Counted from the first letter of the stretch, positions 17,390 through 27,978 are shown. The stretch: DNA of 64,000 bases from Lysobacterales bacterium (GCA_038236935.1 JBBRZH010000003.1:18227-82226); one strand, 5' to 3'. A program made the numbers and translations. Notes: generated by a model not told the origin, from the sequence alone.

Positions 17390-17471
17390 TGTCCGACTCC
17401 CGCGTTGCTGATGCCCTGCAATCGCTGAACGGGTCTCCAAAAAGGAACCCAGCCCGTTTTTTTTGGGTGGA

Positions 17472-18674
17472 ATGGTCAGCATAATCGGACATCCAGCAGA
17501 CCAAGGGGATGGTTTGGACACCTTGAGAAAAGATCCGGATGACACTGCCCGGATCGCGCAGCCGTCGCGAGCGTTTTGGCATGACGTCGCCGACGTGGTG
17601 CTCAGTACCGACCCGCGTCGACGCATGCGGATCACACTATGGTCGATCTCGGCATTGGCGTATTTCAGCAGCGCCCTCATCTTGTGGTTTGGGATGAGCC
17701 AAGGCTGGATGTACGCCAATCGGCTGGTGCCATGGTGCATGTTCCTGGCGCTGGGATTGGGGGCGATCTACGCCGCGTTGCGGTCGGGATGGACCGAACG
17801 CTTCGCCGACCCGGCGATCACGGTGTCGCAAATCCTGATGGGCGTGATCGGCGTGGAATGGGGATACGTGATCTGCGGCCCGATCCGCAGCGTCGCATTG
17901 TTTCCATTGCTGCTGATCTTCACCTTCGGCGCGTTTTCGCTGAGCTGGCGCAAGATTGCGGTGTTGACCGGCGTGGCTTTGGTTTCGTTGCTCGCGACCG
18001 TGCTTGCCTTGCACTCCACTCGGGATGCAACGACGCTCTGGTCGCTGGCCAATGTCGACCTGCGCATCGACCTGACCAACTTCCTGATGATCTCGGCCAT
18101 GTTGCCCGCGCTGTCCTTTGTCGCGGCCATGTTGTCCCTGTTGCGCAGCAAGCTGCGCTCGCAGCGCGAGGCGTTGACCAACGCATTGTCGGAAGTACAA
18201 CGCCTGGCGACGCACGATGCGCTGACGGGCCTTTGCAACCGCCGCTACATGGACCAGCGGCTGCTTGAGGAGCATGCCATCTGCGAACGGCAGGATCGCA
18301 CGTTCAGCATCGCGCTCATCGACCTGGACAACTTCAAGCAGATCAACGACGTGCAAGGACATGCCGAAGGCGACAGGGTGCTGCAATGGTTCGCCGATCA
18401 ATCGCGGATGGCGTTACGAGCATCGGATCAGATCGCACGCTGGGGCGGCGAGGAATTCCTCGTCCTCATGCCCGGCACGGACGGTAAGCACGCTCAGGCA
18501 TGCATCGAGCGCATGCGGGAGAAGCTGCATGTCGGGGCGGGCTCGCCAGTCAGTTTTTCTTCCGGCGTCACCCAATACCGCGCTGGCGAAACTGTTGCCG
18601 ACATGCTCCTGCGCGCGGATGCCGGGATGTATGAGGTCAAGCATGCTGGACGAGATGCGGTGAGTCTGTGTTGA
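17472..18674 (+). CDS. Membrane-bound diguanylate cyclase (multi-TM + GGDEF)
   Basis: About six TM helices, [22 protein letters not shown], and RASD I-site followed by WGGEEF. Confidence 0.9.
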
Positions 18675-19095: not shown

Positions 19096-19251
19096 CTACT
19101 TGTTGATGATGATCGGGGTGGTCACCGAGCGTCCCCGGATGGAGGCCGTTTCGGCCGGTGCAGCTTCCGCCTGCTGATCGGCGTTGTCCGAGGCTTCGGT
19201 GCCCTCGTCGTCGACGATGTCCTCATCGTCATCGGGATGCATTACGTTCAT
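19096..19251 (-). CDS. Unannotated 51-aa acidic peptide
   Basis: AGGAG-cacgac-ATG; MNVMHPDDDEDIVDDEGTEASDNADQQAEAAPAETASIRGRSVTTPIIINK*; GC3-rich codons; followed by a hairpin. Confidence 0.7.
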   Translation of the reverse strand: MNVMHPDDDEDIVDDEGTEASDNADQQAEAAPAETASIRGRSVTTPIIINK

Positions 19252-19341: not shown

Positions 19342-21489
19342 TCAGGGCAGCGTCGATATGGCCCGTTGCTGTCTGGGCAGGGCCGGCGAGGGGATGTGGT
19401 GTTGGTGCACCAAGGCGATCAGGGCCGGTTCGCGGTAACCGGTATTCCACAGCTTCGGGAGCAGGAGCTGGGCCTCGTGCTCGCGTCCGAGCGCGAGCAA
19501 TGCCTCCACCTGCAATCCCAGCAGTCGAGGATCATTGGTGCCAGGAGAGTGCGCTTGCGTCGTCCGCAAGGCGTGTTCGCGCAGTGCCGTCGCGGTGTCG
19601 CCATCGCTGGTCGTTGCGGCGAGCAGCAACCGGGCGCGGACCGTCGCCAGCACAATCTCGCGATCCTCCCGTTGACCAGCCAGTTGCGGCTCGAGAATGC
19701 CCAGCGCCCGTTGCACTTGCGCACGTGCGTCCACGCTGCGACCACTCCCATGTGCCTGCTGTGCCTTCTCGATCAGGGCATCCGCCAACTCGCGTTGCCA
19801 ACTGGCATTGCCCGGATCCTGGCGGGTCAGCCGCTCCAAGACCTGCAGTCCCCGGTTGGCAAGCGCACTTGCGCCAGGCGTGGCCGATCCTGGCGCGTCA
19901 CCCGCCACTCTCACCCATCGGGCCAGTTGCGTTGAATACAGGCCGGCGTCTTCCTGGAATGCGGTGCTGCTGGCGTCGACAACCAGCAGGCGATCGACCT
20001 CGTCCAGCGCCTGGCGCAGATAGCCGATGCCAGTCACGACATCACCGGTCAACGCCAGGGTGCGCCCGAGCGCGGCGCGCGAAAGCACCAGCTTTTCAGC
20101 CTGCGCGTTGTCGCGGGGATCGCGGTTGGCAAGGTCGGCCTCGATGTCGACATCGGTGCGATATTCGGCCACCGCGGTCGCCAGGTCACCACCCATCAAG
20201 GCCATCTTCGCCAGGTTGTTGTGTGCCAGCCCGAGCAGCGCAACCCAGTCGCGGTTGCCGCGGTCGATCTGCACCAGGGCTTCGGACAGCTTGCGCATGC
20301 TGCGGTATTGAGCCAGCGCCTCATCCACGCGACCACGTCCTTCCAGCACGTGTCCCATGTTGTTGTCGATGGTCGAGAGCTGGTACAGCAATCGCGAATT
20401 CGCTGGCGCAAGTGGTCGGCTACGAAGCAGCACGCGCTGTGCCGATTCGAAACCGGCCTGGGCCTGGTCGAGCTGGCCCTGGTACCAGTGCGTAGTGCCA
20501 ATGAACGCGAGATCGTCGGCATACGCCAGTTGGCGTTCGATATTCGATGGTGCGGCCTGCGCGAGTTTCGACGCGAGGGCGGCAGCGGCCTGGTAACTCC
20601 GTAAGGCTTCCGGAAGGTGCCCCTGCTCGGTCCGGACATTGCCGATCTTCACCAATGCCTTGGCGCGTTGCTCCAGCGACTGGTCGGTGACATCGGTGGT
20701 TGGCAGCGACTGGAAGTAGCCCATCGCCTGGTCGTTGACTGCTGCAAGGATGTCCAGTCGCTCGACTTGTGCAAGCTTGTCGCTGAGATCGCCCAGCATG
20801 AAGTCGACCAGCGCTTCGGCTTGCTTCTGCCGACGCTCTGCGGCGTGTCTTGCGATCATCGCCTGCACGGCCAGGAAGCTGGTCAGCGTCATCACGAGCA
20901 GCGCGAGCGCGGTGATGACCAGCATGCGTCGGTGACGTCGCGCCGCCTCGCGTTGCCGCAAGGTGTCCAGGTTGACGCCGAGCAGCCCAGACAGCAGCTT
21001 GAGCCGCGCCAGAGATTTACCATCCTTGCCCGGGCGGAGATCCGCGGCGAGTGGTTCGGCCGGTTGCGTGCCGAGTTCACCATTGGCATCAAGATCGAAA
21101 CGCAACGCTTCGGGGAAACATTCGCGGGCATCGCCAGCATGCGGTTCGCCAGCCACGATCAGGCAATAGATGCGGTGAGCGCGACCATTGCGCTTGAACT
21201 TCAGGATCTCGCCATTGACCCATGGAGAACGTGCGGAATTGGGCGAGCAGACCACGATCAGGGCTTCGGAATCCGCCAGCGCCGCCTGGATCTTCGGACC
21301 GAGTTCACCGGCGCTGGCGAGTTCCTCGCGATCACGGAAAAATGGCGCCAGGCGATCGGGCAATACGCCGAATTCGCCACTGCTGCCGCGCAGTCGAGAC
21401 GGCACGCGATAGCCTTCCAGGTTGCGATGCAGCCAGCTGGCCCAGCGCGAATCCTTGTGGCTGTAGCTGATGAAAGCGCGGTACCGCAT
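19342..21489 (-). CDS. TIR domain - TM - TPR-like repeat protein
   Basis: AFISYSHKD, FFRDREEL, LIVVCSPNSARSPWVNGEI (catalytic-position Glu), one hydrophobic helix after RHRR, then helical repeats. Confidence 0.88.
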   Translation of the reverse strand: MRYRAFISYSHKDSRWASWLHRNLEGYRVPSRLRGSSGEFGVLPDRLAPFFRDREELASAGELGPKIQAALADSEALIVVCSPNSARSPWVNGEILKFKRNGRAHRIYCLIVAGEPHAGDARECFPEALRFDLDANGELGTQPAEPLAADLRPGKDGKSLARLKLLSGLLGVNLDTLRQREAARRHRRMLVITALALLVMTLTSFLAVQAMIARHAAERRQKQAEALVDFMLGDLSDKLAQVERLDILAAVNDQAMGYFQSLPTTDVTDQSLEQRAKALVKIGNVRTEQGHLPEALRSYQAAAALASKLAQAAPSNIERQLAYADDLAFIGTTHWYQGQLDQAQAGFESAQRVLLRSRPLAPANSRLLYQLSTIDNNMGHVLEGRGRVDEALAQYRSMRKLSEALVQIDRGNRDWVALLGLAHNNLAKMALMGGDLATAVAEYRTDVDIEADLANRDPRDNAQAEKLVLSRAALGRTLALTGDVVTGIGYLRQALDEVDRLLVVDASSTAFQEDAGLYSTQLARWVRVAGDAPGSATPGASALANRGLQVLERLTRQDPGNASWQRELADALIEKAQQAHGSGRSVDARAQVQRALGILEPQLAGQREDREIVLATVRARLLLAATTSDGDTATALREHALRTTQAHSPGTNDPRLLGLQVEALLALGREHEAQLLLPKLWNTGYREPALIALVHQHHIPSPALPRQQRAISTLP

Positions 21490-21534
21490 GTGTATTCCTT
21501 GTGGCGTGGCAGCCGGGTTCGGCCGTGAAAGGAA

Positions 21535-23265
21535 TCATCCGGACATCTGTGCATTTTCCAGCGGCCGCTCACGATGCAACAGGATCCATTCGGCATGTTC
21601 TTCCAGGCAGGCGCGTCCCAGCGCCAGCAGCAATTGCCTGGATTCGGCTTCTCCTCGCGCGCGATTCAGGCGTTCCCGGCAACTGTCGAACAGGCGCCGC
21701 ATGAAGCGGAACTGCTTGATCAATTCCTTGTCGGCTTTCTTGTACGAATACGCTTCGTGCAAACCGGCCAGCAGTGGCAGCAGGCCCATCGCCAGCACCA
21801 GCATCTGTTGCGTGATCGCGTGCAACCGATGCCCTCCGATCAGCAGAACCAGGGCGCCCGTGAGTCCAGCAAGCAATGCGAGATTGCTCAGGCGCGTGGT
21901 CGTGCGATGGGAACGTTCGCGTTGCAGGCTGCAGCGCTGGAAATAATCCAGTTGCCCACCCTTGCCTGAGCGATCGCCGATCCAGTGGTCGATGACCCAT
22001 TCCAGCCATCGCGAGTCGGGAACAAATGATTCATCGCGCAGCAAGCTGGTGTCGCGCATGGCATGGCGAATCCAGCTCAGGTCGACATCCTGTTTCTGGA
22101 GGAAACTATCGTAGCCCAGGCTGCTGTTGGGTGGGATCTCGACGCCTGCAATCCGCCAGTAGAGTTCCACGCGCAGGCCTTCGGCCAGGCCACGGTAATC
22201 GAGGTACTTGCGCTGCCATTGCCGTCGCTGGCCGATGATCGCCAGCAACAGCCCGAGCAGGAACAATCCGAGGAATGCCGCAAGGTACACCCGCAGCGGC
22301 GTGGCATCGGAATACAAAATGAAGGCCATGCCCATCAGCGCCGCGATCACGTGCGTGCACCACAGGCTCAGGCGCACGCGTCGCTGGAAATGGATGGCAA
22401 GCCAGTCGGCAGCATGGAACCGCCGCTCGATGGCAGCCGCGTTCCGTGATGGCGCACAGGGCAGTGGCGCAGTGAACAACGTCGATGCATCAATAGCGAT
22501 CTCCGGCGCGTACCGGTGCAGGTCGGCGTTGAACATTTCCAGCTGCCGGAATACATGGATGTAGTGTTCGGGCAGGCCACTGGACGCATCATGTTCGTCG
22601 GCCTGCGTCACCCATCGCGTCTTTAACGGCGGCAGCCGTGGTGGCGTACCTTGCGCGCCCAGGCGCCTGGAACAACTGATGTGGAAGATCAGGTCGCTTT
22701 CGTCATCGGCCAGCAGGTTGGGCGCGATCTCGTCGACGCTCAGGTTCGGCATCGTGTCGTGCAGGTGGAACTCGACTACCTGCGCGGTGCCACCCATCGC
22801 GCCATTCGAATTGCCGTCCCACAACGCCAGCAACAACTGGCAATGCGAGGACACGAACATTCCCAGTTGCGCGTATTGGCGATTGCGGGTTTCCCCACGC
22901 ACGGCAATCGCTTCGGAACAGATGCCCGGTGCGAGTGGCAACACCCGCACTACCGCTTGGGCAAGGATGGTCTGGAATCTCCGCAGCACGGCTGGATCGG
23001 TGAAATCACGTTCGTATTCGGCTTGCGCCATCGGTAAAGGGACCATCAGTTCGATCCCCAGTGCCAGCGCTTCCTCCGCCACCAGCTGGTCGCCGCCTTC
23101 GGCCAGCGCCGAGATCAACCGCAATGGGAGGTCCGGGAATTGCTCGCGCAGGTCAAGGAAAAATGCGCGAACAGTTGTCCGCAGCCCCGGCTCCTCTTCG
23201 GAAAGCAGGTCACGATGAGCGGTCAGGCCAATATTCAATCGCGCCCTGATGTCGGTGGGACTCAT
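21535..23265 (-). CDS. SLOG-like domain fused to two 2TM (SLATT/DUF4231-like) modules
   Basis: IGLTAHRDL, ISALAEGGDQLVAE, LLALWDG..GAMGGTAQVV (SLOG-like); TM hairpin followed by WQRKYLDYRGLAEGLR; second TM hairpin followed by ADKELIKQFRFMRRLF. Confidence 0.75.
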   Translation of the reverse strand: MSPTDIRARLNIGLTAHRDLLSEEEPGLRTTVRAFFLDLREQFPDLPLRLISALAEGGDQLVAEEALALGIELMVPLPMAQAEYERDFTDPAVLRRFQTILAQAVVRVLPLAPGICSEAIAVRGETRNRQYAQLGMFVSSHCQLLLALWDGNSNGAMGGTAQVVEFHLHDTMPNLSVDEIAPNLLADDESDLIFHISCSRRLGAQGTPPRLPPLKTRWVTQADEHDASSGLPEHYIHVFRQLEMFNADLHRYAPEIAIDASTLFTAPLPCAPSRNAAAIERRFHAADWLAIHFQRRVRLSLWCTHVIAALMGMAFILYSDATPLRVYLAAFLGLFLLGLLLAIIGQRRQWQRKYLDYRGLAEGLRVELYWRIAGVEIPPNSSLGYDSFLQKQDVDLSWIRHAMRDTSLLRDESFVPDSRWLEWVIDHWIGDRSGKGGQLDYFQRCSLQRERSHRTTTRLSNLALLAGLTGALVLLIGGHRLHAITQQMLVLAMGLLPLLAGLHEAYSYKKADKELIKQFRFMRRLFDSCRERLNRARGEAESRQLLLALGRACLEEHAEWILLHRERPLENAQMSG

Positions 23266-23392
23266 CTTCTGGCTGGTCCAGCATTGGCGTTGAAGGCGTT
23301 ATACGCCTCGGGAGGGGTGCCAGGAAAAGGGTGATCAAACGAGGGGCAGGTTCATTCTCTTTTCTGCGAGGTACATTGAACGCAGGTGTCGA

Positions 23393-26300
23393 TTACTTCA
23401 CGCGCGCTGCCGTGATCAATCCGGACAGGTCGCGCATGGATGCGAGTTGCTTTGCTTCGGTCGAACTCCCGTCGATTAACTGGACGGCAGCGTTGAGGTC
23501 GGCAGCGCGCTTGGCATGGCCGTCGACGTCAGTGTCGCGTGTAAGTGCGCTGACATACAGCGCATAGGCAAAGTCCTGCCGGAAGCTGGTTCCAGCCGCA
23601 CCCGCGTGCTGCTCTCCACTGTAGAACGCCAGTGCCGGTTGCAGGGTTGCCTGCGCTTCGTCATTGCGTGCTTGCGCGGCCAAGGCGTGGCCCAGCGCGG
23701 CAGCTGCCTGCGACGACTTGATTCGCGGATCGTCTTCCGACTTCGGATTAGGTGGAAGGGCAAGCCACCGTCGCGCCAGTGCTTCGGCTTGGGGGTAGCG
23801 GCCAAGTCGGAGTGCGGCATGACTCGCCGTGAACAGAACGCCGGAAAGAAAATTTTGTTGCATCAATTCCGCGCTGCTGCCTGGTGCGGTCTTGACCAGG
23901 TCAAGCCGGCTGACAATGGCGTTCGCGTCATTGAATGCGGCTTGGGTCTGGCCCGCGAACAGCTCCAGTCGTGCATTCATCTGCTGGGCGGGGTTCGCCA
24001 GCAATTGCCTTCGCGGGTCGTTCGCGGGTAGCGGTGCGATCAGCACGCCGGTGTCATGGACGAATCCTTTCACCGACTGCGTCGAGGCGTCGAAATCCCC
24101 GGCCTGGGCCTGCAACTGCCCGAGCTGCGCCCAGCCGAACCACATGTTGGGACCTAAATCGGACGGTCTCCGCGGGTCCTGCTCCATGGCCATCAGTGAA
24201 CGAAGACTTGCGATTGATCGACTGACTTCGCCACGTTCAAACTGCAGGTCAGCGACCTGTTGCAAGCCCGATGCCCAGCGTTGCCATGCACCCATGTCAG
24301 ATGGGTTGAAACGCACCTCGTCCTCGCCTGCCTGGGCGGCGCGTCGGGAATAGTCATCAGCGGTTGCAAGATCATGCTGGCGCCCGGCAATGGAACCGAT
24401 CAGCTCGGCGGCCCACGAACGATCGCTCAATGCATGCAGGTCGCCGGGTCGCTGCGCCAGTACTTTTTCTGCAAGGTCATACACCTGTTGTTCGAGCGCA
24501 CGTGCTTCACCGACACGGCCGAGCGAGAGCAGTTCACGCGATTCCGAGTCAGCGGTATCGGCGTACGACGCCGTCGCGTTGAGATCCGCCAGCTGCAAGG
24601 CGCCGAGCGTCACCAGCACTTTCCGCGCTTCAGCACAGCTTGCTACACCCTTGTCCGGGGTCTGCGAGTGGCTGAGGATGTTCAAGGTATCGGCATATAA
24701 CGACCGGACGCGTCGTGACGGGTTGGCGCCATAGACCAGCGGGCGCAACATATCGGCGGACTGGGTCAGCTGCGCCGCGGTGCCACGTCCGCCTCCGCTG
24801 GAACCCACGGTGCTGTAACCCTGGGTCGTGAGTGCCAGGGCCAAACCGTACGTGACGGGTTCGCCTTGGTCCCCGGCGGCGCGAAGTCGTTCGAAGATCG
24901 TTTCGGCCTCGCCGAAATTCTTGTAGGCCGCCGGGATGTTTCCACTGGATTGCAGCGCCGCGCCCTCGCGTACGAGGGCCATCGCGCGATAGATCCGCGT
25001 CTGTGGGGTCACCAGCTCCGGTGGCAGCCCATCGTAGTAACCCACCGTCATGTGTGCGAGCTTGCCCAGCGTGTCCAGGCGGCCGGTGGGTTCCAGTTCG
25101 GAATAGAAATCCTCGATCAGGAAGCTCACCAGCTTCTCGGCATTGCTGCGCGACGTTTGCGCTTCGAGTTCCGCCGAACGCGCGCGGTGCATGTTGACCC
25201 AGCCGAAGATCGCACCGGCGCCAGCGAGCAACATCAGCACGGCGCATACGGTGGCGATCATTCGCGCCCGCAGCAACGCGCGATGCGTCGTGGCTTCACG
25301 CGCTTTTTGCTCCGCAAGCCGGCGCTCGGCATCGTCGCGCGCTTCACGTTCCTGTCGCAGGTTGCGACTGGCGAGGACCACGCTGCAAAGCACGTCGTGG
25401 GTCAGCTCCACGCGGCGCATGTCCAGGCGCTCCTCGATGCGCAGCAGGCGTCGATTGACCAGGGTCGACAGCGCATCGGGGGCGGCACCCGCCGCGACGA
25501 GGGCCTTGATGACGCGTTCCTCGGCCAGGCTTTCGCGATACCCCGAATCAGTCAGCAGGTCGTCCTCGATCACGCGTCGCACGCCCGCAGGTTGATCGGC
25601 GAGGGTGCGTTCGTAGAACTCGCTGAGGATGGTGTCGCGCGAACCAGCCAGCAGGTCGGCGGAAATTTCGCTGCGTCCCTGTAGTTGCCGGACGGTGTTG
25701 AGTTCGCGGCAGACCAGGCTCAGCAATGAAGGTTCGATCTCCGCGTTGCCCAGCTCCGAACCGCCGGCGACGAAACGCACGATCGATTCCGCCACTTCCT
25801 GCGACACCAGGCGTCCGCCGGGCTTGACCACGGCACTAAGCGCCTGCGTGCCGGTCATGCGCGCCAAGCGCATCCTGTTCTGCGTGATCGACGGCATGAT
25901 GCCCTTCACGCTTTCCAGGTGCGCCAGGTAGTCTTCGCGCAATGCAATCAGGATGCGGTAGTCAGCGCGTGCGAAGTCGAAACTCTCCGCTGCCGTGTCG
26001 TCGTTCTCGATTCGTGCTTCGAGCGCGGCGGGCGGGCGGTTCTCGACCAGATCGGCGAGGTCATCCAGGAACTGGCGTGCACGCAGCCGACCGGCATCGT
26101 CCGCCTGCCCCAGGGTGAAGATCTCTTCGAACTGGTCGAAGATCAGCAAGGGCACCAGCGCGCGTCCATCGCCGTCGCGCAGCAGGTCGGAGCGATGGTG
26201 CAGGAACTCCCACAGTGATTCGCCTTCCACGGCGCTGCCAGGAAGCGTCCAGTCGCCGGCGACAGCCGATGCCTTGAAGATCTCCTGCTTGATCTGTTCA

Positions 26301-26581
26301 GAAGGCGAGGGCGATTCGGGTGCGTAGTCGATGCGCACGTAGATTGGACAAAATCCCTCGGTGCGCAGGCGCGGCACGATGCCGGCGCGCAACAGCGATG
26401 TCTTGCCCAACCCGGACTGACCGAACAACACCGTCAGCAGCTTGCGCTGCACGCGTCGCGCCAGTTCCGCGGTTTCTTCCTCGCGGCCATGGAAATACGC
26501 GAGTGTTTCCTCCGAATACGAGAACAGGCCCAGCCAAGGATTCTCTGGATCGACAGTAACCGCGTCGGCAGGCGTGCTCAT
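23393..26581 (-). CDS. nSTAND1-type NTPase - TM - TPR-like repeat protein
   Basis: NPWLGLFSY..YFHGRE, Walker A GQSGLGKT, Walker B LLIFDQFEEIF, ILIALREDYL, LVNRRLL, VELTHDVL, then a TM helix and helical repeats. Confidence 0.9.
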   Translation of the reverse strand: MSTPADAVTVDPENPWLGLFSYSEETLAYFHGREEETAELARRVQRKLLTVLFGQSGLGKTSLLRAGIVPRLRTEGFCPIYVRIDYAPESPSPSEQIKQEIFKASAVAGDWTLPGSAVEGESLWEFLHHRSDLLRDGDGRALVPLLIFDQFEEIFTLGQADDAGRLRARQFLDDLADLVENRPPAALEARIENDDTAAESFDFARADYRILIALREDYLAHLESVKGIMPSITQNRMRLARMTGTQALSAVVKPGGRLVSQEVAESIVRFVAGGSELGNAEIEPSLLSLVCRELNTVRQLQGRSEISADLLAGSRDTILSEFYERTLADQPAGVRRVIEDDLLTDSGYRESLAEERVIKALVAAGAAPDALSTLVNRRLLRIEERLDMRRVELTHDVLCSVVLASRNLRQEREARDDAERRLAEQKAREATTHRALLRARMIATVCAVLMLLAGAGAIFGWVNMHRARSAELEAQTSRSNAEKLVSFLIEDFYSELEPTGRLDTLGKLAHMTVGYYDGLPPELVTPQTRIYRAMALVREGAALQSSGNIPAAYKNFGEAETIFERLRAAGDQGEPVTYGLALALTTQGYSTVGSSGGGRGTAAQLTQSADMLRPLVYGANPSRRVRSLYADTLNILSHSQTPDKGVASCAEARKVLVTLGALQLADLNATASYADTADSESRELLSLGRVGEARALEQQVYDLAEKVLAQRPGDLHALSDRSWAAELIGSIAGRQHDLATADDYSRRAAQAGEDEVRFNPSDMGAWQRWASGLQQVADLQFERGEVSRSIASLRSLMAMEQDPRRPSDLGPNMWFGWAQLGQLQAQAGDFDASTQSVKGFVHDTGVLIAPLPANDPRRQLLANPAQQMNARLELFAGQTQAAFNDANAIVSRLDLVKTAPGSSAELMQQNFLSGVLFTASHAALRLGRYPQAEALARRWLALPPNPKSEDDPRIKSSQAAAALGHALAAQARNDEAQATLQPALAFYSGEQHAGAAGTSFRQDFAYALYVSALTRDTDVDGHAKRAADLNAAVQLIDGSSTEAKQLASMRDLSGLITAARVK

Positions 26582-27978
26582 GCGGACCTCCGCCCGGACA
26601 GGTCTTGCAGGCGGTGCAGGAATTCCGGCGACGGCTCGCCGCCGGGCAGCCGCACGATATGCAGCGCCTTGAAATTCTCGGGCACCAGCGCATCGCCCTG
26701 CGGCGTGTCATCGATGCACACCGGCAGGATGAACATGCCGCCATCGGCGATGTTGCGGGCGCGATCGACGGCGTAACTCCATTCGCGGCGGAAATACGCC
26801 TCGTGTCGTCGCTGCGTGGCGGCCGAAATCACCGGCACGAAGAAACTGCAGCGCGCGATGTTCGCTCGGATCTTGCGGTCGTAGTCGTCGCCGCCTTCCA
26901 GCCGGTCGATGTCGAACCAAGTGGTGATGCCGGCGGCATCCAGCGCGGCCTTGAGGTGTTGCACGGCCGCTAGGTCTTCGCGCGCGTAACTGATGAACAC
27001 CGCATTCTCCGGCATCTCGCGCGCTGGTGGCAGGAACCGTTGCGGCGCGCCGGTCGAGACACTGGATGCCAGGGATGGGCGCTGGCGTCGTGTCCAGCGT
27101 GCGTGCAGTTCGGCGACGAACGCCTCCGCCCCGCCATACACGCGCGTGCGCACGCTGACCTGCTGCAGGAAGGCCACCAGCCGGCTGTCCTGCATCGTGT
27201 GGTCGTCGGCGAACACTTCGGTGACATCGCGCGGATCGGACAGGCGCTTGCGCTTGGCCATGCGCAGGAACAATCGCGCCAGCCAGTTGGAGAAATCGCT
27301 GCCGATCAGCAGCAGGTGGTTGTGCTCGAGTTCGTGGAAGAGCTTCTCCGGCGTCAGGTGCTCGGACTGCAGCGCGCAGATGAACTCCAGCATGTCTTCG
27401 TCCGACAGCACATACGTCGGTGACGCCGACAGCCTCCCGAGCAGGTGGTAGATGACCGTATGTTGCAGCTGGCTGCGTTCGACCGGCAGGTCGACGACGC
27501 GATTGGGCGCATAGGCGATGACTTCGGTCGATGCCTGGCCGCCATGTCGCTCGGCGTTGATTGCGTTCTCGAGCAGTGGATCGAACGTGGTCGTCACGAA
27601 CAGGTTGAAGTCGGTGATCTGAGCCAGTTGCCGCAGGGCCAGCGGCGGCTCGAACTGCACCTCCCGCATGATCGATCGCAACCGCGTATATGCTTCCTCG
27701 CGCCGGCCGTGCTGGCCGAGGTAGCAGCACATCACGTCGTTGAGCGTGAGCGGGCGCGGCAAGCCGACGACGTCGACCGAGAGTCGGCCAGCAAGCTTTT
27801 CGGCCAGCCATTCGTACAAGGGGCGCAGTCCAGAGTCGGTCTGCACGCGGAGCAGGTCGGGCCCGATGATCGGGATGACCCGTCGCTCCTCGATGTAGTT
27901 CAACAGGTCGTCCCAGGCATCGTCGTCAAAGCCCTGCAAAGCGGGCGTGGTGGGCAGAAGTGTCGGTTCGGTTGCCAT
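26578..27978 (-). CDS. SIR2-like (SIR2_2) domain + C-terminal TIR domain protein
   Basis: VIPIIGPDLL, FVTTTFD, IYHLLG and LLLIGSDFSNWLAR form a SIR2-like Rossmann fold; VFISYAREDL, WFDIDRLEGGDDY and YFRREW are TIR motifs; ATGA overlap with the STAND gene. Confidence 0.8.
   Translation of the reverse strand: MATEPTLLPTTPALQGFDDDAWDDLLNYIEERRVIPIIGPDLLRVQTDSGLRPLYEWLAEKLAGRLSVDVVGLPRPLTLNDVMCCYLGQHGRREEAYTRLRSIMREVQFEPPLALRQLAQITDFNLFVTTTFDPLLENAINAERHGGQASTEVIAYAPNRVVDLPVERSQLQHTVIYHLLGRLSASPTYVLSDEDMLEFICALQSEHLTPEKLFHELEHNHLLLIGSDFSNWLARLFLRMAKRKRLSDPRDVTEVFADDHTMQDSRLVAFLQQVSVRTRVYGGAEAFVAELHARWTRRQRPSLASSVSTGAPQRFLPPAREMPENAVFISYAREDLAAVQHLKAALDAAGITTWFDIDRLEGGDDYDRKIRANIARCSFFVPVISAATQRRHEAYFRREWSYAVDRARNIADGGMFILPVCIDDTPQGDALVPENFKALHIVRLPGGEPSPEFLHRLQDLSGRRSA

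Follow-up and report, generated by a model that had tools for sequence, protein, structure and literature searches.

The stretch of DNA analyzed here, hereafter the window, is a 64,000-nt segment from a Lysobacterales bacterium (GCA_038236935.1 JBBRZH010000003.1:18227-82226), and all coordinates without a locus label refer to it. It carries a cluster of genes, all on the minus strand, that includes two putative membrane receptors: one with an nSTAND1 nucleoside triphosphatase (NTPase) head (the STAND protein) and one with a TIR head (the TIR protein). In each, the head is followed by a predicted transmembrane (TM) helix, a juxtamembrane block of about 68 aa and an array of tetratricopeptide repeats (TPRs). 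A preliminary description of the locus had drawn attention to the similarity of the two blocks and had proposed from it that the two proteins are paired receptors. The cluster contains the following features, in the direction of reading:

26578..27978, minus strand: soluble protein of 466 aa with SIR2_2 and TIR_2 domains (SIR2-TIR; Pfam SIR2_2 3e-11, TIR_2 3.3e-19), with no hydrophobic segment.
23393..26581, minus strand: STAND protein, nSTAND1-TM-block-TPR, 1062 aa (Pfam nSTAND1, PF20703, 6.9e-32, 111.9 bits against a cutoff of 27.1, residues 15-427).
25190..25282, minus strand: predicted single TM segment of the STAND protein, residues 434-464, preceded by HRALLRAR (peak Kyte-Doolittle 19-residue mean 2.39).
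24962..25165, minus strand: juxtamembrane block of the STAND protein, residues 473-540, containing the 60 aa first described (24962-25141).
21535..23265, minus strand: SLATT-type protein of 576 aa with four predicted TM helices and, on weak evidence, a SLOG-like N-domain (Pfam DUF4231 8.1e-07, 29.9 bits against a cutoff of 24.7, residues 289-368).
19342..21489, minus strand: TIR protein, TIR-TM-block-TPR, 715 aa (Pfam TIR_2 1.7e-12, 48.3 bits; ThsB_TIR 1.5e-06, 29.0 bits against a cutoff of 21.2).
20848..20928, minus strand: predicted single TM segment of the TIR protein, residues 188-214, preceded by RRHRR (peak Kyte-Doolittle 19-residue mean 2.48).
20641..20844, minus strand: juxtamembrane block of the TIR protein, residues 216-283, containing the 60 aa first described (20641-20820).
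19096..19251, minus strand: acidic peptide of 51 aa with the C-terminus TTPIIINK, 3′ of the TIR-TM-TPR gene; its tail is common to small proteins that follow TIR-TM-TPR genes elsewhere.

Minus-strand translation of 20641-20820 and 24962-25141 gives exactly the two 60-aa peptides that had been aligned in the preliminary description, while the plus-strand reading of both ranges gives unrelated peptides and was discarded. Aligned without gaps, the peptides share 24 of 60 residues and score 99 by BLOSUM62; when one of them was shuffled 100,000 times, the mean was 4.1 identities (maximum 14) and the score -52 ± 16 (maximum 25). In a BLASTP comparison of the full proteins only one segment was significant, pairing residues 183-309 of the TIR protein with 430-566 of the STAND protein over 137 columns at 28% identity (E = 1e-11), such that the homology spans the basic stretch before the TM helix, the helix itself, the block and the first TPR. 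Coordinates, identity count, shuffle test and BLASTP all agree with the match as it was first described, and the block is truly homologous in the two proteins.

The shared region belongs to a cassette with a fixed order: a basic stretch, one TM helix of about 22 aa, the juxtamembrane block of about 68 aa and the TPR array. Neither Pfam nor NCBIfam has a model that covers the block. Profile A1, built from two sequences across the block and the first TPR and searched against 1.84 billion cluster representatives, matched 5,354 of them at E ≤ 1e-3 and 1,821 at E ≤ 1e-10, part of these matches being to TPRs only. The 68-column core that precedes the TPRs was present in 100 of the 148 best representatives, nearly all of which have a hydrophobic segment 25-45 aa upstream of it. 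A search for other output domains on the block, Ser/Thr kinases among them, had been suggested, and such kinases were indeed found: among 54 diverse carriers, Pfam assigned nSTAND1 heads to 24, Pkinase (Ser/Thr kinase) heads to 14 and TIR_2 heads to 12. The consensus from 87 representatives, aAerrr.qAE.Lv.FMLgDL.dkL.pvgRLDiL..V.dkam.Yf.sLP..dvtd..l..Ra.AL..iG, is common to all three head types. The block is therefore not private to the TIR and STAND genes of the window; it is widely reused on several heads and, being conserved, widespread and without annotation, could become a family model in its own right. Carriers with short N-termini, which might have passed for headless forms, look like truncated gene calls and were left out of the topology evidence described below. 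Among plasmids there was no full-length relative of the TIR-TM-TPR protein, the best match having 31% identity over 79% of the protein.

Two further carriers deserve mention. One kinase carrier has a chemotaxis-like cluster as its neighbour and lies outside any defence context. In a metagenomic locus, a single polypeptide of 1139 aa (P0022, L003:5282-8701) combines TIR_2, nSTAND1 and TPR regions and matches the block region of the TIR protein, indicating that other lineages fuse a TIR head directly to a STAND-plus-cassette protein.

The helices look like single TM spans. Each of the two window proteins has one strongly hydrophobic segment by Kyte-Doolittle 19-residue means, that of the STAND protein being its only one above 1.6, and the basic residues noted earlier in front of each helix are present as listed above. 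Across 76 carrier representatives the hydrophobic segment measures 21.9 ± 2.3 aa, and the flanks contain 5.9 (N-side) and 3.75 (C-side) Lys plus Arg per 15 residues, with the N-side flank more basic in 66 of the 76 (Wilcoxon p ~ 1e-11). The heads have no signal peptide, and nSTAND1, TIR and kinase heads use ATP or NAD+. From the basic N-side flank, the missing signal peptide and the need for ATP or NAD+ we infer an N-in/C-out topology, with the heads in the cytoplasm and the TPR array in the periplasm; the arrangement first proposed from the positive-inside rule for two proteins thus receives support from a family-wide bias. It seems to us very improbable that the TPR arrays are cytoplasmic, on a helix that does not span the membrane, or that the orientation is reversed, with Avs-like sensing in the cytoplasm and the PIIINK tail of the small peptide as a possible ligand. 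The fairly basic C-side flank would suit such an arrangement, as would the small peptides, which carry no signal peptide and have a conserved C-terminus resembling the tails that are frequent ligands of TPR domains. However, the segment consists of about 22 uncharged residues with a Kyte-Doolittle mean of 2.4-2.5 and is conserved across the 76 representatives, the positive-inside bias indicates N-in, and a cytoplasmic array behind a single segment would need a helix that does not cross the membrane, whereas reversal would place ATP- and NAD-dependent heads outside the cell.

Predicted structures suggest how the block may be built. An AlphaFold2 model of the TIR protein, made from 101 sequences (mean predicted local distance difference test score, pLDDT, 89.3), has one unbroken helix at residues 174-242 that runs from the pre-TM stretch through the TM helix into a 28-aa extension; this is followed by a helix at 245-261, a loop containing Leu-Pro (LP) and regular helix pairs up to residue 696. 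The STAND model (mean pLDDT 75) repeats the pattern at an offset of 257 residues, with helices at 447-496, 502-517 and 526-546, and has about 13 helix pairs at residues 526-1061 with pLDDT around 90 or higher. In both, the block would prolong the TM helix by a rigid stretch of about 28 aa and then form one capping helix docked on the first TPR. Foldseek with the TIR-TM-TPR model returned generic TPR superhelices only (consensus TPR, OGT, LGN) and nothing specific to the block. For each region, conservation was taken as the average identity of homologues to the protein of the window, the homologues having been selected by similarity over the whole protein. In the STAND family (75 orthologues) it was 80% for the head, 71% for the block and 41% for the rest of the TPR array; the corresponding values in the TIR family (11 orthologues) were 58%, 64% and 37%. 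The block is thus as constrained as the catalytic heads while the TPR array drifts, and for this reason it most likely acts as a relay: a change that a ligand induces in the TPR array would pass through it across the membrane and make the heads oligomerize. The TM helix of the STAND protein (residues 441-464) also has a run of small residues, AGAGA, in which G460 is invariant and A457 nearly so among 100 homologues; it is a GxxxG-like motif, and such motifs are typical of packing between TM helices. The TM helix of the TIR protein has no small-residue motif of this kind.

Homology between the blocks does not by itself say whether the two receptors work together, and gene neighbourhoods bear on this more directly. 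Searches of GTDB species representatives gave at least 600 matching stretches, at least 560 of them encoding a STAND relative, of which 80 were kept; with five fetched individually, 85 STAND loci were compared, 59 of them with at least 4.5 kb of downstream sequence. SIR2-TIR lies directly upstream of the STAND orthologue in 82 of the 85, the three exceptions being at a contig end. A second block-bearing gene, always TIR-TM-TPR, is near STAND in three loci only (L007, L008, and L022). Conversely, neither STAND nor SIR2-TIR adjoins TIR-TM-TPR in any of 22 TIR loci, while a homologue of the SLATT four-TM protein does so in 13. In 151 genomes of the same order, a TIR-TM-TPR relative was found in 56 and a match to the STAND query in four, two of which (G012 and G026) match by the NTPase head only, at 34-43% identity. 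The other two, G000 and G095, have full-length orthologues; besides the window's own genome, G095 alone has a close one (67% identity over the full length), and it lies 54 kb from the nearest TIR-TM-TPR gene. The constant partners therefore differ, being SIR2-TIR for the STAND protein and the SLATT four-TM protein for the TIR protein, and the co-occurrence counts define two conserved units: system A, consisting of SIR2-TIR and nSTAND1-TM-TPR, and system B, consisting of TIR-TM-TPR and the SLATT protein with or without a small protein.

Comparison of the blocks points the same way. In the 2.34-Mb assembly from which the window comes, a block profile matched the TIR and STAND proteins only. Their blocks are 37% identical over 68 columns; over the same columns the STAND block has a mean identity of 33% (maximum 38%) to representatives of the TIR family, and the TIR block a mean of 44% (maximum 58%) to representatives of the kinase family. 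The value of 37% is thus ordinary cross-family background, and the neighbouring blocks show no trace of recent duplication, gene conversion or co-evolution with each other. A dedicated receptor pair, hetero-oligomerizing through related stalks in the manner of paired nucleotide-binding leucine-rich repeat receptors (NLRs) or Toll-like receptor (TLR) heterodimers, might have been expected from the homology of TM helix, block and first TPR, from two co-directional receptor genes only 1.9 kb apart, and from the recurrence of all four genes in L008 and of three of the four in L007 and L022. We nevertheless consider it improbable, given a TIR partner in so few STAND loci, no STAND partner at any TIR locus, the 54 kb that separate the genes in G095, a TIR block nearer to kinase blocks than to that of its neighbour, and TM helices that differ in the AGAGA motif. 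As far as gene neighbourhoods and block identities can tell, comparative genomics contradicts the paired-receptor design of the preliminary description, and the stalks, related as they are, do not appear to be specific to a pair.

Our preferred reading is that a mobile sensor cassette, transmembrane and found on at least three kinds of head (nSTAND1, Ser/Thr kinase, and TIR), has the shared block as its conserved core, and that the window holds two separable systems side by side, A next to B, whose receptors are not an obligate heteromeric pair. To this reading as a whole we assign a probability of about 0.68. It splits the locus cleanly into two testable systems and gives a clear negative on the paired-receptor idea.

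In system A, the stop codon of the SIR2-TIR gene and the start codon of the STAND gene overlap in ATGA, and SIR2-TIR is probably the effector of the STAND gene. Stop-to-stop open reading frames of 1,350-1,580 aa that seemed to be SIR2-TIR/STAND fusions proved to be two genes in different frames, the long frames being artefacts of GC-rich DNA. The Walker A motif GQSGLGKTS and the motif DQFEE of the STAND protein are invariant among 100 homologues, while its C-terminal TPR region has only a marginal Pfam match (TPR_12). The pair would constitute a STAND conflict system with its sensor facing the periplasm and SIR2-TIR translationally coupled to nSTAND1-TM-TPR. The periplasmic TPR array would bind a cue; the resulting change would travel through the rigid, TM-continuous helix and the block; the nSTAND1 heads, with their conserved Walker motifs, would oligomerize with ATP; and the coupled SIR2-TIR would be recruited or activated, degrading NAD+ or making a signal. 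SIR2-TIR plus nSTAND1-TM-TPR also occurs in Verrucomicrobiota (Opitutia; L052-L060, L066, L073, L074, and L077) and Betaproteobacteria (Casimicrobiaceae; L062-L088), with 48-51% whole-protein identity and 70-79% in the NTPase head, as well as in Xanthomonadales-type Gammaproteobacteria. Its neighbourhoods in three named genomes differ, containing uvrB, hrpA/recQ and uvrC. This pattern of taxa and chromosomal neighbourhoods suggests that system A spreads horizontally as a mobile two-gene module.

System B resembles a Thoeris-like pair, TIR-TM-TPR plus a SLOG-like/SLATT four-TM protein, with the addition of a small tail-bearing peptide. The catalytic Glu94 in the SPWVNGEI motif of the TIR protein is invariant among 101 homologues. 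The four hydrophobic segments of the 576-aa protein form two hairpins behind an N-domain of about 280 aa; DUF4231 was found in 22 of 22 of its homologues, among which SLATT_1, SLATT_3, and SLATT_6 matches also occur, while the NCBIfam matches of the protein itself to SLATT_1 and SLATT_3 are below cutoff. Its glycine motifs GGDQ and GGTAQ are ones that we take to resemble those of SLOG. A ligand would cluster the membrane TIR domains, which would make a nucleotide derived from ADP-ribose; the N-domain of the 576-aa protein would bind this nucleotide, and the SLATT hairpins would open.

The small gene after TIR-TM-TPR always ends in the tail P-[ILT]-I-[IK]-N-[KHTR] (window 19096-19251, minus strand; L007:14636-14911; L008:16443-16601; L001:12206-12601; L002:12296-12700; L092 near 9939). 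It encodes either an acidic peptide of 51 aa, conserved in L007 and L008, with the tail PIIINK or PLIINK, or a beta-rich protein of 131-134 aa with the tail PIIINH or PTIKNT. In six frames of 1.95 Mb the motif occurred six times, every time beside a TIR-TM-TPR gene. The tail-bearing proteins have no Pfam match and no signal peptide, and the tail may be a TPR-binding peptide. In Thermomonas and Rhodanobacter, TIR-TM-TPR is followed by a 131-aa protein of which the window's genome has no full-length homologue; only the tail-bearing 51-aa peptide is found there.

Both systems have relatives among described conflict systems. A repeat-plus-effector logic has been described for the nSTAND1 clade (Kaur, Burroughs, Iyer & Aravind, eLife 2021, PMC8195603), and membrane-proximal conflict systems, with SLATT as a predicted nucleotide-gated pore, have been discussed as well (eLife 2020, PMC7159879). 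Like these nSTAND1 systems, system A has an nSTAND1 head, C-terminal supersecondary-structure repeats as the proposed sensor and an NAD-targeting TIR/SIR2 effector, which in those systems is fused or adjacent. It differs from them in having a TM helix and a conserved block between NTPase and TPRs, which would place the sensor in the periplasm, and in its effector being a separate, translationally coupled SIR2-TIR protein. The passages searched in PMC8195603 and PMC7159879 do not describe an nSTAND1-TM-TPR architecture. For system B, the association of TIR with SLATT, again as a predicted nucleotide-gated pore, is documented (PMC9503650), and TIR with the SLATT effector ThsH constitutes type VII Thoeris, alongside which an untyped “SLOG and 4TM” candidate has been listed (preprint 10.64898/2025.12.03.692087). 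System B shares with these a ThsB-like TIR domain with a conserved Glu next to a SLATT-family membrane protein with a possible SLOG-like ligand-binding domain, an arrangement seen in the 13 of 22 loci mentioned above. In contrast to Thoeris, the TIR protein of the window is itself a single-pass membrane protein with a TPR array of about 430 aa, and the effector has an N-domain of about 280 aa plus two SLATT-like hairpins. PADLOC matched no Thoeris model except for weak TIR hits.

DdvA of Myxococcus has been studied experimentally: it spans the membrane once, and an anti-phage island is under the control of its periplasmic TPR-CHAT domain (PMC11506125). It offers a functional precedent for sensing on the envelope side. 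It too has a cytoplasmic output and a large periplasmic TPR-containing sensor proposed for a phage cue, and it forms a dimer across the membrane. DdvA has no NTPase, TIR or kinase head, its output is the release of an extracytoplasmic function (ECF) sigma factor by regulated proteolysis, and its TM helix is followed by a flexible linker, not a conserved helical block. Avs (AVAST) proteins share with the STAND protein the STAND NTPase, a TPR-like C-terminal sensor and effectors of SIR2 or TIR type; however, they are soluble proteins to which the effectors are fused, and their targets are phage terminase or portal proteins in the cytoplasm. The contrast with soluble Avs sensors drawn in the preliminary description is upheld by the one strong TM segment of the STAND protein, which no PADLOC Avs model matches. 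To our knowledge, every STAND or TIR anti-phage sensor characterized so far perceives its trigger in the cytoplasm. The suggested resemblance to TLRs or paired NLRs survives in part. The TIR protein does have a TLR-like layout, with repeats for sensing outside the cytoplasm, a single TM helix and a TIR domain inside it, by analogy only: its repeats are TPRs, not leucine-rich repeats, and no common ancestry is implied. The obligate genetic pairing that defines paired plant NLRs is not seen at TIR or STAND loci.

If the topology is right, thousands of protein clusters wire a periplasmic TPR sensor through a block of about 68 aa to an NTPase, TIR or kinase. Detection would then take place at the envelope, before or during genome entry, and the block would be a new relay element with a role comparable to that of HAMP or other juxtamembrane linkers.

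Several observations weigh against the two-system reading or parts of it. The C-side flank is high in Lys and Arg for a periplasmic one, and the small peptide, having no signal peptide, would as a TPR ligand clash with a periplasmic TPR array unless it is exported. The relay role is drawn from conservation and from models in which the TM/block region reaches a pLDDT of only 52-65 in the TIR protein and less than 50 in the STAND protein; because of this low confidence in both proteins, the block geometry is tentative. SLOG-type Pfam matches are weak, with YAcAr in 1 of 22 homologues (E = 0.0018) and DprA in 1 of 22 (E = 0.037), and since a PDB profile search with the SLATT protein gave spurious TM matches only (melanocortin receptor), the SLOG assignment stays weak. 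In E. coli, neither of the two “SLOG and 4TM” candidates examined conferred defence (preprint 10.64898/2025.12.03.692087). Moreover, adjacency of A and B recurs. The window, L007, and L008 represent one lineage, L008 having the gene order of the window and L007 lacking the SLATT gene, while L022 is separate, with the order STAND, TIR-TM-TPR, SLATT and a divergent system B (58% and 44% identity). A SLATT homologue also lies directly downstream of system A, without TIR-TM-TPR, in eight loci (L012, L013, L014, L016, L020, L023, L024, and L051). Some functional cross-talk between A and B may therefore exist.

By a rough estimate, about 0.2 events of A-B adjacency would be expected by chance among some 60 loci, against two independent events observed, and the clustering is thus above random; it fits either ordinary clustering in defence islands or a SLATT effector shared by both TIR-containing arms. 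Furthermore, in a maximum-likelihood tree of SLATT genes, those next to system A fall into two distinct clades, both well supported and both nested within B-associated genes, which means that the association arose at least twice. These results, together with the position of the SLATT gene between the two receptor genes and its homologues downstream of system A alone, could reflect a functional convergence without physical pairing, in which TIR-made nucleotide signals from both arms act on one SLOG-like/SLATT effector and the four genes are one two-input system. We regard this as unlikely, though less so than a dedicated pair: about 85% of system A loci have no SLATT gene within 8-10 kb, defence genes form islands anyway, and the SIR2-TIR of system A could itself be an NAD-depleting effector, with no need of SLATT. 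A broader formulation is likewise doubtful. The TM-juxtamembrane-TPR cassette would be an undescribed general signalling module that couples periplasmic sensing to STAND, TIR or kinase heads in transmembrane NLR- or TLR-like receptors, and here two receptors of different TPR specificities would feed TIR-made nucleotides into one SLOG-like/SLATT pore, as an envelope surveillance with two inputs and one effector.

More distant SLATT-like genes (27-34% identity, 160-250 aa) were also seen near system A, upstream and on the opposite strand in L055, L056, L057, L074, and L077, and at L082:13180-13725; several of these loci are from Verrucomicrobiota and one is from Betaproteobacteria. SLATT-type membrane proteins may thus be more frequent companions of system A than the count of close homologues indicates. 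A 734-aa open reading frame after the SLATT gene in L023, considered as a hidden receptor, has no Pfam match and an antisense-like composition rich in Arg, His, and Leu, and was rejected as spurious; a 535-aa gene upstream of system A in L007 bears no relation to the SLATT protein.

At the level of the whole locus, PADLOC recognized no known defence system, matching the STAND protein to 0 families, and NCBIfam yielded no match at the level of a system for the proteins encoded there. GC content is unremarkable, without an island signature, and the limits of the transcription units did not emerge from a simple scan for terminators and promoters. On the plus strand, within a few kb of the cluster, lies a gene for a GGDEF diguanylate cyclase, membrane or GAF-linked (17463-18674), as is also the case in the syntenic metagenomic contig (L008:2920-3903); its presence in both is probably conserved chromosomal context only.

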